Source of the DNA: an uncultured Phycisphaerales bacterium
GTDB taxonomy: Bacteria > Planctomycetota > B15-G4 > CAYZWU01
Assembly (NCBI GenBank): GCA_964633825.1
Contig: CAZWHE010000126.1
Coordinates: 1 to 12,406 of the forward strand
Direction of reading: 5' to 3'
DNA: 12,406 bases
Made by a program: the position numbers and the translations under genes. Of the stretch, positions 590 through 8,241 are shown piece by piece (the stretch's first letter is position 1; each line of letters begins with the position of its first letter). The notes below the pieces were generated by a model. That model ran no database searches. It was not told the origin of the DNA and worked only from the letters and a program-made list of their open reading frames with translations.

Positions 590-624
590 GGAAAAAGAAC
601 GGGGCAGGGCTTGCGCCCTGCCCC
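590..624 (-). terminator. Rho-independent terminator of the 647-1705 gene: perfect 10-bp GC stem, 4-nt loop, then a T-run on the minus strand
   Basis: GGGGCAGGGC (601-610), loop TTGC, GCCCTGCCCC (615-624). On the minus-strand transcript the hairpin is followed by GUUCUUUUUCC (complement of gaaaaagaac, 591-600). It lies 23 nt downstream of the stop at 647-649. Confidence 0.65.
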
Positions 625-646
625 GGCGAGGATGAAAATCGGTTTG

Positions 647-1705
647 TTACATGACCGCTGTGGCCACGACGTTCGAGGCCATTCCCATCTGGCAAGCCTG
701 GAGCCAGGCGGGACCGGCATAACCGGTGGGGCAGGTAACGCTCCATACCGTTGTTCCGGAACCGTCCGAGTTCTTGTTGAAACCGAGCTGGGGATTGGCG
801 ATTCCGAGTGTGATGCCGAGCTGGGGAACGTTAACGCTTCCCGTACCGGTCGTGCTGTAGACCAGGTAGGTCATGGTCGTGGCTGTACCGTTGGTCACGG
901 TGAAAGTAACGTTCTGTCCGCCGACGATCGGGTCGGGGGAGACGGCCAGGGTGTAAGCCGTACCGCCGCCATCCACTTCCCAGTTGTCGTAGGATCCCAT
1001 GGCCCAGGCGCCGATGCCGAATTCCGTACCCGTGATTCCGAGAGCCAGGGCGCCGGTGTTATCGTGATGCTGGTCCACGGTTCCGTTGAAGTCATTGTCG
1101 ATGTCCACATTCAGAGTGTCACCGCCGTTGGACATGTACATGGTGACTTGCGCGGTCTGGACGGGGGTCGTGAGATCCTGATAATACTGGGTTCCCCAGC
1201 CGCCGCCGTTGCCGGAACTGTAGAAGAAGATCCGGTCATAGTACCCGTCGTCATTATTGTCCTGGATCTTGGTGTAGAGCCACGTCGTGCTTCCGGAGGT
1301 GGCGCCCATGATGAGGGCGACATGAGGGCCGGACGAGCCTGACGGAGCCACAAGATCGATCTTCATGGTGGCGTCCGTGTGCGCCATGGAAGCGGAGTTG
1401 TGGAGCATGTAGCTCCATCCCGAGGACAGGTTGCCCATCCCGTGATTGCTGGAGATAGCCATGTCTCCAGTCCACTCGGTCCAGTCGGCTCCCATGTTCG
1501 TTCCGCTGGCACGGTTGAAATCGTCCGACCAGGTGGCACGCCCCGGATTCAGGCCGGCCTGCTGGGCGGCCATACCGGGAAAGGGAGCCGAAAATGAGGG
1601 TGGGTTGGCATCCACGGGCAGGTCGCTGTTGGCTGCGGTTTGAGCGTAAGCTCCGACTGCGAGTATTCCGATGAAACAGAGGATTAAGAATAATTGTTTG
1701 TGCAT
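647..1705 (-). CDS. Secreted hypothetical protein, 352 aa, with signal peptide; Gly/Thr/Asn-rich, probably beta-rich
   Basis: ATG at 1703-1705 preceded by GGGAGA on the minus strand. N-terminus MHKQLFLILCFIGILAVGAYAQ is a classic signal peptide. The long ORF is in the same direction as its terminator hairpin. No family could be assigned from sequence alone. Confidence 0.7.
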   Translation of the reverse strand: MHKQLFLILCFIGILAVGAYAQTAANSDLPVDANPPSFSAPFPGMAAQQAGLNPGRATWSDDFNRASGTNMGADWTEWTGDMAISSNHGMGNLSSGWSYMLHNSASMAHTDATMKIDLVAPSGSSGPHVALIMGATSGSTTWLYTKIQDNNDDGYYDRIFFYSSGNGGGWGTQYYQDLTTPVQTAQVTMYMSNGGDTLNVDIDNDFNGTVDQHHDNTGALALGITGTEFGIGAWAMGSYDNWEVDGGGTAYTLAVSPDPIVGGQNVTFTVTNGTATTMTYLVYSTTGTGSVNVPQLGITLGIANPQLGFNKNSDGSGTTVWSVTCPTGYAGPAWLQACQMGMASNVVATAVM

Positions 1706-4370: not shown

Positions 4371-5447
4371 ATGGCGACAACACGGGATCGAATAGCGTTT
4401 CTCCTCTGGGTCCTGATCGTTATCCCGGGCTTTACTTCCTTGTCGAGCGCCAAGGATTCGGGGCCGGCCGTCGGATCGGTCGCGCCCGAAATCGGACCAT
4501 GCCAGTGGCTTCAGAAAGAAAAGGATCGCTCCACCAAGATCGCTGAGCTTCGGGGGATGGTCGTCCTGATCCACACCTTTGCAGTGGGTTGCTTTCCGTG
4601 AGAAAGCAAGGGCATTCCGCTGGTAGCGGAAACGGTGAATGCCAACGGCGACAGGGGGATCACGGCGATCTCGCTCACGGCCAACAACCCCGAGCTGAAG
4701 TCGATTGTTAAGAAAAACAATGTGAAGCACGCCATTGCCCTGATGTCAGCGATTACGAAAACGTGCCCCTATGTGGATGTCGGCAAGAACGGGTTCACCT
4801 ACGTATTCGTTGTCGGGCGGGACGGAAGAATCTTTTGGAGAGGAAACCAAACGGTCAAGGAGAAGGATTTCCTCAAGGCGGTCGGAAAAGCGCTGGAAAC
4901 GAAAACGATCCCGGCGTTCGAGAGGACTCTCGATCCCGTCCTTGATGATGCTGTCTCCATGTACAATGATTTCAGGTTCAGCGAAAGCCGCAAGGCCGGG
5001 CAAAAAATCTTTGACAAACATTCGCGGAGATCCGGCGGGGACTCCGCCGGGATTGCCGAGGATGCGGCCTTTCTCATCGAACAAATCGACGATTTTTCAG
5101 AAAAGCTTTTCCTTCGCATGGAGCTGGCCGTGGAGACCAAGGCCGGAATCCCTTTTGTCGAGTCACTGGACATGCTCACCACCGGTTTCGCAAAAAGCGA
5201 TGCAGCCGAGAAGGCGCGGGAGCTGACGCGGAAGGCCGGCGAAGACAGCCGGTTCGCATCGGAGATCAAGGCCGCAAGGGCCTGGCTCGACCTGGTCAAG
5301 AAACGGCCCGTCATCTTTTCCGAGAGCGGGAACAGGGCCTCCAGAGCGTTCGCCAAGAAACTCAGGAAGTTCATAAAGAGCTATGGGGGATTGACGGCGG
5401 CCGTTGAGGCCGAAAAACTCCTGAAACGTGCCGGCGGCCGAGGCTGA
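4371..5447 (+). CDS. Thioredoxin-fold (TlpA/ResA/redoxin-like) thiol-disulfide oxidoreductase. Candidate selenoprotein with Sec encoded by the in-frame TGA at 4599-4601 (active-site motif C-F-P-U) and a ~170-aa helical C-terminal extension. The track splits it into 4371-4601 and 4635-5447
   Basis: Both track ORFs are in the same frame (4371 and 4635 both ≡ 0 mod 3) with no other stop between them. The N-terminal part has a signal/anchor (IAFLLWVLIVIPGFTSLSSA) then G.VAPE...L..LRGMVVLIHTFAVGCFP-TGA. The read-through continues ESKGIPLVAETVNANGDRGITAISLTANNPELKSIVKKNNVKHAIALMSA...YVDVGKNGFTYVFVVGRDGRIFWRG, which is the remainder of a TlpA-type thioredoxin fold. A fold split exactly at the CxxC position is only sensible if TGA encodes Sec. 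SD GGAGA lies 6 nt before the ATG at 4371. Confidence 0.6.
4611..4643 (+). promoter_or_regulatory. Putative bacterial SECIS stem-loop downstream of the in-frame UGA of the thioredoxin-like gene
   Basis: The outer 7-bp stem GGCATTC/GAATGCC starts 9 nt after the UGA. Inside it, an apical hairpin UUCCGC-UGGUA-GCGGAA (4615-4631) starts 13 nt after the UGA, with G and U in the loop as in known bSECIS elements. Structure is inferred by eye; no energy calculation was done. Confidence 0.45.
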
Positions 5448-6781
5448 TGGGGGAGAAGCGGATAATCAACCGCTCGCCGAGAGAGGGCCGGCGTGAATGC
5501 GGCGTTTGGGGGATTTGTCTTGTTCTGTTGGCGGCCGTAACAGCCGCTCCCGCGCCTGTCGAATGGCTCCTGGTCAAGTCCCGGTGGACCGGTCCGCGCG
5601 CTCCCCATGTGGACGGGGTCTGCGAGATCGCCCTTCCCGATGACGAGCGGTTCATGCCTTCCTTTGTGGGGGACGCGGGTTACAAATCTCTTCGGTTGAA
5701 GTTTCGGGATCACGACGAAGGCCCGCGCACTTTCATCGTGAAGTGGACGCCCGGCGAGACGGGCGTGGAATCATTCTCCCTTCTCCTCGACGGCCGCGAG
5801 GTGGGAAGATCCCGGACCCTCGACGCCGCCGGCCTGGTGATGAGCGACTTCGTCGATGTTTTTCGCTTCAGTGTTTCGCCGAAAGGGGACCACGTTCTCG
5901 AGATCAGGCACGAGAGCGGGAACGGCCTCAACTTTCGAAGCTTTCTCTACAGCGACGAAGAGCGGCCTCTTCCTCCCGGGGCCGTTCGGTCGAAAAAGGA
6001 GTATGAAAAAGCACTGGGAGGCCGGGGAATCCGTCTGGAGACGCAGAACCTCGTGTTGTATGCGCCCTCCAAGCACGCGGGTTATGCGCGAAAGCTTGTC
6101 AAAGCCCTCGACGAAGCCTCTCTCCTGCTCAACGAGATCCACGGCGGAAAGCCGCCATACAGGATTTCCGTCGAGCATTTTCCCAAAGAGAGCCCGCGCG
6201 GTTTCGGAGGGGTCTCTACGGACGGCGTCGTTTCCTATCCCATTGACAACCTGAACGACCGGAGCGCGGAGTTCCTTCGCCACAAGACGCCGCGCATCCT
6301 GGGATACGTGGAGGAGATGTGCCACATCTACAACAAAGGGGATTTTTACTGCAGGGGGACCTACGAAGCATTGGGGATGTGCGTTTCCCGGCACACGGTG
6401 GAACGCGCGGCATCTTGTCCCCCTTTCCGGGCGAAGCTCGAGAGGTGGAGGCGTCAAGAGAAAGAGACATTTGAAGACTACGTTTCGTTCCGGTTCAAGA
6501 ATCCGGGCCAATACGAGTGGGGGATCTTCTACACCCGCATTCTCGTTCACCTTTTAGAGGGATATGCGGATTCCTATCAAGGCGATTTTTGGAAGGACTT
6601 CTTCAGCGAGCTTCGCAAGCGGAATTTTCCCCTGCAAAAGGCTCATAAAAAAGATCGCCTCGATGTGTACGCCCGGATCATGGGCGCTCTTCTCGATCGA
6701 GATATTCAAAAGGAATGGCGCGAGCTCGGCATCCGCCATGACGGCGATAAACCGTGGGGATGGAAGACATACGACCGATGA
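5447..6781 (+). CDS. Secreted hypothetical protein (444 aa), translationally coupled to the upstream thioredoxin-like gene (TGATG overlap)
   Basis: Stop TGA at 5445-5447 overlaps the ATG at 5447-5449. The basic N-terminus then hydrophobic VWGICLVLLAAVTAAPAP suggests a signal peptide. Long ORF with several conserved Cys/His (CHIYNKGDFYCRG). No family recognised. The minus-strand 259-aa overlap is judged a shadow ORF. Confidence 0.6.
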   Translation: MGEKRIINRSPREGRRECGVWGICLVLLAAVTAAPAPVEWLLVKSRWTGPRAPHVDGVCEIALPDDERFMPSFVGDAGYKSLRLKFRDHDEGPRTFIVKWTPGETGVESFSLLLDGREVGRSRTLDAAGLVMSDFVDVFRFSVSPKGDHVLEIRHESGNGLNFRSFLYSDEERPLPPGAVRSKKEYEKALGGRGIRLETQNLVLYAPSKHAGYARKLVKALDEASLLLNEIHGGKPPYRISVEHFPKESPRGFGGVSTDGVVSYPIDNLNDRSAEFLRHKTPRILGYVEEMCHIYNKGDFYCRGTYEALGMCVSRHTVERAASCPPFRAKLERWRRQEKETFEDYVSFRFKNPGQYEWGIFYTRILVHLLEGYADSYQGDFWKDFFSELRKRNFPLQKAHKKDRLDVYARIMGALLDRDIQKEWRELGIRHDGDKPWGWKTYDR

Positions 6782-6835: not shown

Positions 6836-6900
6836 TCATTTCATTCGGAAGCGACGCCTATTCTATCGTTTGTCTCGTTAATATTCGAATGGAGGAAGAC

Positions 6901-8241
6901 ATGAAAAAAACAGCGGCGGCAACAGCGGTGGTGTTTCTCTTTTTATGCGCGGGCGGGCTTCGAGCCGACGTTCCCGATCTCGAAGCCGGGGTCTTGATCC
7001 AAGACGGCACCGAGCCCCTTGAAGTGAACCTTCACTCGTCCTGCACCGTCGTGGACTGGAACAACGACGGCAAGAAAGACCTTGTGGTCGGCCAGTTCTA
7101 CTACGGAAACATCTGGCTCTTCCTCAATCAAGGAACGGACGCCAATCCCGTTTTCAACGGGGGCTCTCTCATTCAATCGAACGGATCTCCCATTACCACC
7201 ACCTACGGGTGATGTATCGGCGCGAGTCCGCGAGTAGTGGACTGGAACAATGACGGCAAGAAAGACCTCATCACGGGCGAGTACAACGGCAACGTCAGGA
7301 TCTACCTCAACACCGGCACCGATGCCGATCCGGTCTTCAGCGGGCACAACCTGCTGCAGGTGAACGGTTCGACTTTCGATGCGGGCTATTACTCCATGCC
7401 TTACATCGTCGATTGGAACGAAGACGGAAAGAAGGACGTCATCTGCGGGGAAAACGCCGGCGACATCCAGCTTCTGATCAACACGGGGACGGATGCCAGC
7501 CCGGTTTTCACAAGCATCGTCCGCGTCCAGGACGGGGGGAGCAATCTCGACGTGGGCAGCCGCTCCAGCCCGGTATCGGCGGACTGGAATGATGACGGCA
7601 AAAAGGACCTGCTCGTGGGCGAGACCTACGGCAGCATCAAATACTATGAGAACACGGGCACCAACGCCAATCCCGCTTTTAACGGCTCTGTCAGCTTGAC
7701 CGCCGGAGGTTCGCCCATCGACGTGGGATACTACCCGCGCTTCGAGGTGGCCGACTGGGACAACGACGGCACGCCCGACCTCCTTTCCGGTTTCTACGAT
7801 TATTACAACGATCCCAAAGCGGGCGTCTATTATTTCCACGCCGCCGGGGGGGTTGACTCGCTCACGACGGACGTGAACACGATCTCTCAAGCATTCGGAG
7901 GGGACGTTATTTTCTACATGGACGCGGGACTCGCTTACGGGGGGCGGGAATACTTCCTCCTGGGAACGGCCTCGGGCACATCGCCGGGAACGGCCCTGCC
8001 GGGCGGGGCGGTCCTGCCGCTCAACCGCGATGCGGTCATGAACTATATCATCGCCCACTACAACACGCCCGAGCTCTATGAATTCCGGGGAACGATGTAC
8101 AACACAGGCGTGGCCAAGGCCATGCTCTCCGTATCGGGAAGCATTCCGCTGCCCGTGGGCACGGTTTTGAACTTCGCTTTTACTACGGAGAACCCTTACG
8201 ATTTCCAGTCGAACGCCGTGTCGGTTGAAATCGTTAATTGA
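6901..8241 (+). CDS. Secreted FG-GAP/VCBS-like repeat protein with an in-frame TGA at 7210-7212. Candidate selenocysteine read-through (446 aa) or a gene disrupted by a nonsense mutation. The track splits it into 6889-7212 and 7237-8241
   Basis: SD GGAGG 5 nt before the ATG at 6901. Signal peptide MKKTAAATAVVFLFLCAGGLRA. At least five ~62-aa repeats with the FG-GAP calcium-binding signature DWN(N/D/E)DGKKDL...G......N.GT(D/N)A.P.F. Both track ORFs share one frame (≡ 1 mod 3) and the stretch between TGA and the annotated GTG (CIGASPRVV) is open and continues repeat 2 exactly. The upstream fragment alone would be a 103-aa protein with 1.5 repeats. The downstream piece has no SD. Confidence 0.5.

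Follow-up and report, generated by a model that had tools for sequence, protein, structure and literature searches.

A single gene for a secreted TlpA-like thiol:disulfide oxidoreductase very probably occupies positions 4371-5447 (plus strand) of contig CAZWHE010000126.1 from an uncultured Phycisphaerales bacterium (Planctomycetota; assembly GCA_964633825.1; the stretch analysed, all 12,406 nt of it, is called "the window"), with Cys74-Phe-Pro-Sec77 as the active site and an in-frame UGA recoded as selenocysteine (Sec, U). A first-pass annotation, made from the sequence alone, had proposed such a reading of the TGA within a CxxU active site, and this is now supported by three lines of evidence: i) cysteine (Cys) aligns with the TGA in homologues; ii) the TGA is conserved among orthologues; and iii) a hairpin of the selenocysteine insertion sequence (SECIS) type lies downstream of it. 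On this comparative sequence evidence we regard the Sec reading of the TGA at 4599-4601 as well supported and judge the selenoprotein gene to be real.

The TGA is the sole stop between two open reading frames (ORFs) of the same frame, 4371-4601 (76 aa) and 4635-5447 (270 aa), and both the ORF list and the sequence bear out the initial description of two ORFs parted by this codon only. The upstream ORF ends in ...LRGMVVLIHTFAVGCFP, the residues that follow the TGA on read-through are ESKGIPLVAETVNANGDRGITAISLTANNPELK...YVFVVGRDGRIFWRG, and the full read-through product comprises 358 codons including Sec77, with its terminal TGA at 5445-5447. Around the motif the product reads ...VVLIHTFAVGCFP(TGA)ESKGIPLVAE..., and the four motif residues are encoded by TGC TTT CCG TGA, the TGA thus filling the fourth motif position. 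Gene callers had been expected to report two fragments, as indeed they do: the NCBI source record annotates unnamed 76-aa and 270-aa products, an ENA contig carries the same 270-aa product, and two independent JGI assemblies (L010 and L011) show the same split and the same TGA. Furthermore, among the 23 places in this window (56% GC) where a TGA separates same-frame stretches of at least 60 open codons on each side, only those at 4599 and 7210 fall within genuine coding frames in which a domain continues past the stop.

Conservation of the TGA and its cysteine counterparts

Homologues were collected through protein searches, a scan of species-representative genomes, a metagenome scan and further look-ups with DNA retrieval. 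The same codon is TGA in loci L001-L008, L010, L011, L013, L019, L020, L021, L022 and L025, and TGT or TGC in L009, L012, L014, L018 and L023. The TGA is kept in at least eight distinct orthologous genes from two separate clades and in many independent assemblies, a Phycisphaerales metagenome-assembled genome (MAG) included; the TGA-bearing orthologues are as divergent as 50% amino-acid identity, and both halves of the gene are conserved.

Cys aligned with the TGA codon, which had been named as the decisive check, was found in four full-length relatives: P0002 (363 aa, 51-54% identical, GCVPC) and P0004 (357 aa, NCASC), both from the protein search, L018 (NCGTC) from the metagenome scan, and P0164 (FCDAC). 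The truncated protein match P0003 proved at the DNA level to be a TGA-interrupted orthologue; locus L003 reads FAVGCAP(TGA)ETKGVPLVAD, with an identical TGA in 8/8 contigs. A third Sec form came from the species-representative genome scan (L013, an uncultured Phycisphaerales MAG, FAVGCAP(TGA)ESKGVPLVAD), and L019 carries a further one, FAYGCDP(TGA)MRKGVPLVAD. The second clade consists of divergent Sec forms (L020, L021, L022 and L025; motif WVWFCDS(TGA)VKxGVPAVVD) with P0164/L023 as Cys sister, while a Planctomycetaceae MAG (L014/P0017; L014 position 10139) keeps only the fourth-position Cys (DSEPC). In a neighbour-joining tree the two Sec clades stand apart, with many CxxC lineages between them and one Cys form nested in each; Sec and Cys therefore appear to have been exchanged several times in the family.

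A candidate SECIS hairpin downstream of the TGA

Folding of the RNA 3' of the TGA, another check suggested at first pass, revealed a local SECIS-type hairpin that is conserved in clade 1, to which the window gene belongs. Its stem (6-7 bp) begins 13 nt and its loop 19-20 nt 3' of the UGA; the loop can be drawn as UGGUA, or as GGU closed by a U-A pair, and contains GGU in either case. The hairpin lies within every limit of the consensus bSECIS model: a stem of 4-16 bp, a loop of 3-9 nt with G in its first two positions, a distance of 16-37 nt from the UGA, and a minimum free energy of at most -7.5 kcal/mol (PMC13188914).

Conservation at the nucleotide level points to the same element. After the UGA, 4/4 clade-1 Sec genes share GGN-(A/G)UU-CCG-CUG-GUA-GCG-GA(A/C), which folds as (U)UCCGC-UGGUA-GCGGA(A). 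These four genes are 58-72% identical in DNA sequence with 39% of alignment columns invariant, and the longest invariant run in the whole gene is the 16-nt TTCCGCTGGTAGCGGA at 4615-4630 (P about 0.001 by codon-column permutation; next longest run, 7 nt). The run includes a GTA valine codon, and GTA makes up 4/155 valine codons in the other window genes. Moreover, the fold energy at the hairpin is -7.9 to -8.9 kcal/mol in clade-1 Sec forms versus -2.5 to -4.8 kcal/mol in Cys forms: L009, L012, L014 and L018 encode the same residues through other codons, and the hairpin is absent.

The window hairpin resembles the SECIS of Escherichia coli fdhF in being small, located within the coding region directly 3' of the UGA, and equipped with a GGU apical loop about 20 nt away; its stem sequence differs, and it is a candidate SECIS, predicted to be bound by SelB. 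In L003, L013 and L019 a G-C pair and one unpaired U stand below the stem, as is the case in fdhF. A hairpin copy with three mismatches at 462-476 is intergenic and has no in-frame TGA, and was dismissed as a chance occurrence.

An FG-GAP repeat gene with an in-frame TGA of its own

The other site at which a domain continues past a TGA lies 2.6 kb from the thioredoxin-fold gene, in an FG-GAP repeat gene whose repeat pattern runs on across the codon (...SPITTTYG(TGA)CIGASPRVVDWNNDGKKD...). The two genes share a hairpin as well: UGA-N14-UCCGC-GAGUA-GUGGA in the FG-GAP gene versus UGA-N14-UCCGC-UGGUA-GCGGA in the thioredoxin-fold gene. Spacing and 5' arm are identical, the loop GUA is common to both, and the single stem change, C to U, leaves a G-U pair in place; in the FG-GAP gene the extended stem is 7 bp long. 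Because 15-mer matches with up to three mismatches are expected only 0.41 times in the whole window (both strands), a chance match at the same offset from a second in-frame TGA is very unlikely. The FG-GAP gene is thus a candidate for a second secreted selenoprotein, which would support Sec decoding in the source organism. Complete selA/B/C/D sets have been reported for four Planctomycetes, and the split candidate selenoprotein genes in the same study include those annotated "thiol-disulfide isomerase-like thioredoxin" and "ASPIC/UnbV, FG-GAP repeat" (Kim et al. 2016; PMC4807772). FG-GAP/ASPIC proteins are not listed in the 2026 catalogue of prokaryotic selenoproteins (PMC13188914).

Export signal, thioredoxin fold and helical domain

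By inspection, the N-terminus has the features of a signal peptide: a basic n-region, a 14-residue hydrophobic core and the A-x-A-like site S-S-A|K, where the vertical bar marks cleavage; the junction A|K(E/D)(S/T/A)GP is conserved in L003, L013 and P0002. The product is thus probably secreted or periplasmic. Structures were modelled for the 54%-identical Cys orthologue P0002 (AlphaFold2, AF2) and for the window's own C-terminal domain. The P0002 model has a predicted local distance difference test score (pLDDT) of 77.6, exceeding 90 in the C-terminal half; the CxxC (residues 76-79) stands at the N-terminus of helix 77-97, and the order of strands and helices is TlpA-like. The top Foldseek matches of the model are DipZ-C, ResA and TlpA-like structures (E 6e-7 to 1e-5), with Bcp and GPx structures lower in the list, and a profile of four family members matches DipZ at 5e-10 among PDB sequences. 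Together, model and matches support a thioredoxin fold with insertions of the TlpA type (cd02966).

Clade 1 has two additional conserved cysteines, Cys44 (4500-4502, GPCxW) and Cys132 (4764-4766, TKxCPYVD) in the window protein. Both positions are also found in L003, L013, L019 and P0002 and are absent together from the other clades; the pair could form a structural disulfide.

These features suggest how the gene would work. The hairpin would act as a bacterial SECIS and recruit SelB-GTP-Sec-tRNA(Sec), so that the ribosome would insert Sec rather than terminate. The protein would then be exported and its signal peptide cleaved, and the Cys74/Sec77 pair at the N-terminus of alpha1 would cycle between the thiol/selenolate and selenenylsulfide states, exchanging reducing equivalents with envelope substrates; the C-terminal domain, which is like tetratricopeptide repeats (TPR), may bind a partner or substrate.

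Family size and the footprint of split genes

An exhaustive profile search returned 66 cluster representatives with E<=1e-30, a number that rises to 179 with E<=1e-10. Four clusters of N-terminal fragments stop precisely at ...GCVP, ...GCDP, ...GCDP and ...HCDP, and 15 C-terminal fragments start no more than 13 residues past the TGA position, a pattern that we interpret as the footprint of gene callers halting at a Sec codon. The best 72 representatives include 26 with CxxC, 26 in which neither cysteine is left, four with the fourth-position Cys only and none with the first only; the lone first-Cys-only case among all 153 representatives looks frameshifted. Single-Cys representatives number six xxxC versus one Cxxx, and the retained fourth position is the Sec position of the window protein. 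For classical CxxC reductases the opposite retention bias is expected. Both redox cysteines have been lost in about a third of the closest representatives, e.g., P0026-P0028 (DWEDSEA).

Counter-evidence and alternative explanations

Several observations weigh against the interpretation as a TlpA-like selenoprotein. Regarding Sec insertion: i) no selA, selB, selC or selD was found on any locus examined (the window being a 12.4-kb contig), and ARAGORN runs on the window and 12 loci yielded neither a tRNA nor a tRNA-Sec; ii) the 81-nt region around the TGA folds no better than shuffled sequences (z -0.6), only the local 17-22 nt hairpin standing out, and a search of the entire window against Rfam (E<=1) matched no family at the hairpin; iii) randomisation of synonymous codons yielded P of 0.02-0.07 per clade-1 sequence and no signal in clade 2; iv) the clade-2 Cys form L023 keeps the clade-2 hairpin (-7.5 kcal/mol), which thus does not discriminate between Sec and Cys. 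Regarding the fold: v) the model is that of the Cys orthologue P0002 and not of the window protein; vi) the Pfam Redoxin match of the window protein is weak (E 2e-3; 18.3 bits versus a cut-off of 26.6), and the NCBIfam scores for ResA (25.3 versus 170 bits) and TlpA (12.8 versus 230) are all below their cut-offs; vii) the biochemical function is a prediction from sequence and fold.

The clade-2 hairpin, CGGC-GGUC-GUCG, differs from that of clade 1 in sequence and register; given its retention in the Cys sister and the non-significant randomisation, it was not counted as evidence for Sec. From position 1607 of L023 the hairpin sequence is the same as in the Sec sisters (GUGCCGGCGGUCGUCGA); a recent TGA-to-TGT change may have left a relic SECIS behind, or codon bias alone may account for it. 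With so weak a single-sequence Redoxin match, it is the profile and structural results that carry the fold assignment. In this respect the TlpA/ResA/redoxin fold proposed at first pass holds in the P0002 model, the Foldseek matches and the DipZ profile match, while the single-sequence Redoxin score does not reach its cut-off; the window protein appears to be a divergent relative outside the named ResA/TlpA/DsbE equivalogs.

Could the TGA be something other than a Sec codon? The chance of a sequencing or assembly error is vanishingly small: no point in its favour was found, and as this gene and its orthologues show the identical TGA in independent assemblies from JGI, ENA, Logan and NCBI, this source of refutation is excluded. 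A genuine stop, leaving either a pseudogene or two genes, one for a secreted peptide of 76 aa and one for a 270-aa protein with its own start, would agree with the two products of gene callers and public records and with the start codons near the TGA, but is highly improbable. The TGA persists down to 50% identity with both halves of the gene conserved, the Cys forms are uninterrupted, and a split at this codon would sever the thioredoxin fold between beta1 and alpha1, with loss of half the active site. Orthologues that stop here and are followed by an independent downstream gene, a pattern regarded at the outset as refuting, were not found: gene-caller restarts are inconsistent (the window restarts with GTG at +12 codons, L003 with ATG at +48 and L019 with ATG at +1, directly after the TGA), and conservation extends over the stretch from the TGA to the earliest potential restart (window ESKGIPLVAET, L003 ETKGVPLVADT, P0002 ERKGVPLVAEA). 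Read-through without Sec, by a near-cognate Trp or Cys tRNA or through lineage-wide TGA reassignment, would fit the lack of Sec machinery on the loci examined, yet there is very little likelihood of it either. TGA ends not just this gene but at least four others in the window (methyltransferase, bestrophin-like, the 444-aa ORF and HflK-like), and with TGA as a normal stop at 56% GC there is therefore no genome-wide reassignment; moreover, in two different genes the TGA appears to align with a redox Cys beside its partner Cys, and in both a SECIS-type hairpin follows at the canonical distance.

A more serious rival concerns function and leaves the Sec codon in place: the protein may be a thiol/selenol peroxidase of the peroxiredoxin (Prx) kind, with Sec77 as peroxidatic and Cys74 as resolving residue. 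The peroxidatic Cys of the Prx T-x-x-C motif corresponds to the fourth motif position, where Sec77 stands, and this position is also the one retained in single-Cys members (e.g., S-E-P-C in L014/P0017). In addition, catalogued Prx selenoproteins are TxxU and CxxU (Prx-SUH) forms, and the Bcp and GPx structures do appear, if lower, in the Foldseek list. However, the PxxxT/SxxC signature is not matched (Phe70 at -7 and Cys at -3), the window protein has no AhpC-TSA (PF00578) match at E<=0.01, and TlpA, ResA and DipZ-C, rather than Prx, come out on top in both sequence and structure comparisons. We therefore consider a peroxidase unlikely, though worth keeping in mind, and prefer the TlpA-like oxidoreductase.

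Relation to known selenoproteins and thioredoxin-fold proteins

Catalogued TlpA-like and redoxin selenoproteins likewise have an extracytoplasmic TlpA/ResA-type fold with Sec in the redox motif, and the case for them was built in the same way, from an in-frame UGA, Cys homologues and a SECIS. They differ in the position of Sec, which is first and nucleophilic there (UxxC or UGC) and fourth in the window protein (C-x-x-U). The 2026 catalogue comprises 119 prokaryotic selenoprotein families and subfamilies, in which the TlpA-like and redoxin entries are only UxxC or UGC and the CxxU entries are other folds or architectures (PMC13188914). By the rule of that catalogue a differing Sec position defines a distinct subfamily, and the CxxU TlpA-like form would thereby be a subfamily missing from that list, within a well-known kind. 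All NCBIfam selenoprotein models stay below their cut-offs, and P0004 matches NF041054 weakly (21.7 bits versus a cut-off of 300).

The closest architecture is that of VPGUxxT type 1 (NF041382; "OS_HP5"), a model of similar length (349 positions) with the same two parts. Residues 171-352 of the window protein align with its positions 179-348, and distant superfamily members match that half at 1e-21 to 1e-25, whereas the N-terminal domains are unaligned in the hidden Markov model match, the whole-protein score is 16.3 bits versus a cut-off of 350, and the motifs differ (VPGUxxT, with Sec first and Thr fourth, versus VGCFPU). Since the C-terminal half is homologous to NF041382 and the family is large, the architecture is shared and not unusual. 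Thus the helical C-terminal extension of ~170 aa noted at first pass is indeed helical (~180 aa), but the claim of an unusual architecture does not stand, the arrangement being common (179 representatives at E<=1e-10).

Among other thioredoxin-fold proteins, ResA, TlpA, CcmG(DsbE) and the C-terminal domain of DipZ provide the best structural and profile matches; they are exported and have a CxxC-type motif at the start of alpha1. Their motif is W-C-x-x-C with two Cys, and they lack a TPR-like C-terminal domain; in the window protein the motif reads G-C-F-P-U, with Gly for Trp (in clade 1) and Sec for the second Cys. SelW-like/Rdx, Trx7/PDZ (NF041199) and Prx-SUH also place a CxxU Sec on a thioredoxin-type fold, but in other sub-folds and domain architectures, and the window protein matched none of their NCBIfam models at E<=1. 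The relatedness to CnoX/YbbN-type proteins is presumably an architectural analogy only, and was not used as support.

In public records, this gene and a dozen or more related clusters are broken in two, which would render a whole redox subfamily invisible to annotation. Its recognition would add a C-x-x-U form to the TlpA-like selenoproteins, so far catalogued only as UxxC or UGC, and would provide evidence for Sec use in exported proteins of Phycisphaerae-type Planctomycetes; moreover, the natural Sec/Cys pairs in two clades offer material for testing the contribution of Sec at the fourth motif position, and the compact SECIS signature common to two unrelated genes could reveal further selenoproteins in poorly cultured bacteria. 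Taken jointly, the chances seem evenly balanced that Planctomycetota possess an uncatalogued CxxU subfamily of secreted TlpA-like proteins, in which Sec took the place of Cys in two or more independent events at the position usually regarded as "resolving", together with a second secreted selenoprotein of non-redox fold (FG-GAP/beta-propeller) that uses the same SECIS signature, UGA-N14-UCCGC-xxGUA-GYGGA. If true, this would amount to a lineage-specific extracytoplasmic selenoproteome with a SECIS motif usable for mining more members.

Table 1. Positions and supporting evidence of the predicted features in the window (CDS, coding sequence).
Feature	Position	Strand	Evidence
Complete predicted selenoprotein CDS	4371..5447	+	Homology to P0002 and P0004 (full-length Cys forms) runs unbroken past the TGA
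Probable signal peptide, residues 1-27, MATTRDRIAFLLWVLIVIPGFTSLSSA	4371..4451	+	Cleavage before KD; by inspection
TlpA/ResA/DipZ-C-like thioredoxin-fold domain, ~residues 30-175	4458..4895	+	AF2 model of P0002, Foldseek, profile
Redox motif Cys74-Phe-Pro-Sec77	4590..4601	+	Aligns with CxxC of homologues; CxxC at helix start in P0002 model
TGA probably read as Sec77	4599..4601	+	Same-codon TGA in orthologues, TGT/TGC in Cys forms
Candidate bacterial SECIS hairpin UUCCGC-UGGUA-GCGGAA	4615..4631	+	-8.9 kcal/mol; conserved in clade 1; bSECIS constraints
All-helical TPR-like C-terminal domain, ~residues 176-358	4896..5444	+	
FG-GAP repeat gene with in-frame TGA 7210-7212, motif G-U-C	6889..8241	+	Pfam FG-GAP_3 (1.7e-22) in the part 3' of the TGA
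Hairpin AGUCCGC-GAGUA-GUGGACU after the second TGA	7225..7243	+	-12.1 kcal/mol, z -3.6

Gene neighbourhood

Downstream of the selenoprotein gene lies the 444-aa ORF (5447-6781, plus strand), the ATG of which overlaps the selenoprotein stop (TGATG); the overlap suggests possible translational coupling of this ORF. It has no Pfam or NCBIfam match and does not stand beside the orthologues in other loci, and no conserved gene neighbourhood was seen in clade 1 among the loci compared. In clade 2, the Sec gene of L020 and the Cys gene of L023 each divergently adjoin a gene for an extracytoplasmic function (ECF) sigma factor (PF07638; L020 9006-9569 and L023 629-1195, both minus strand), followed in L020 by a Ser/Thr kinase with TPR repeats. 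The ECF sigma neighbour hints at envelope-stress regulation in clade 2; the window has no ECF sigma factor neighbour.

Elsewhere in the window, the sole Rfam match at E<=1 is a sub-threshold one to the small RNA BjrC68 at 592-647 (minus strand; 22.6 bits versus a gathering threshold of 39). It overlaps a G+C-rich inverted repeat (~601-624) just 3' of the minus-strand gene 647-1705, and the element is most likely the terminator of that gene.

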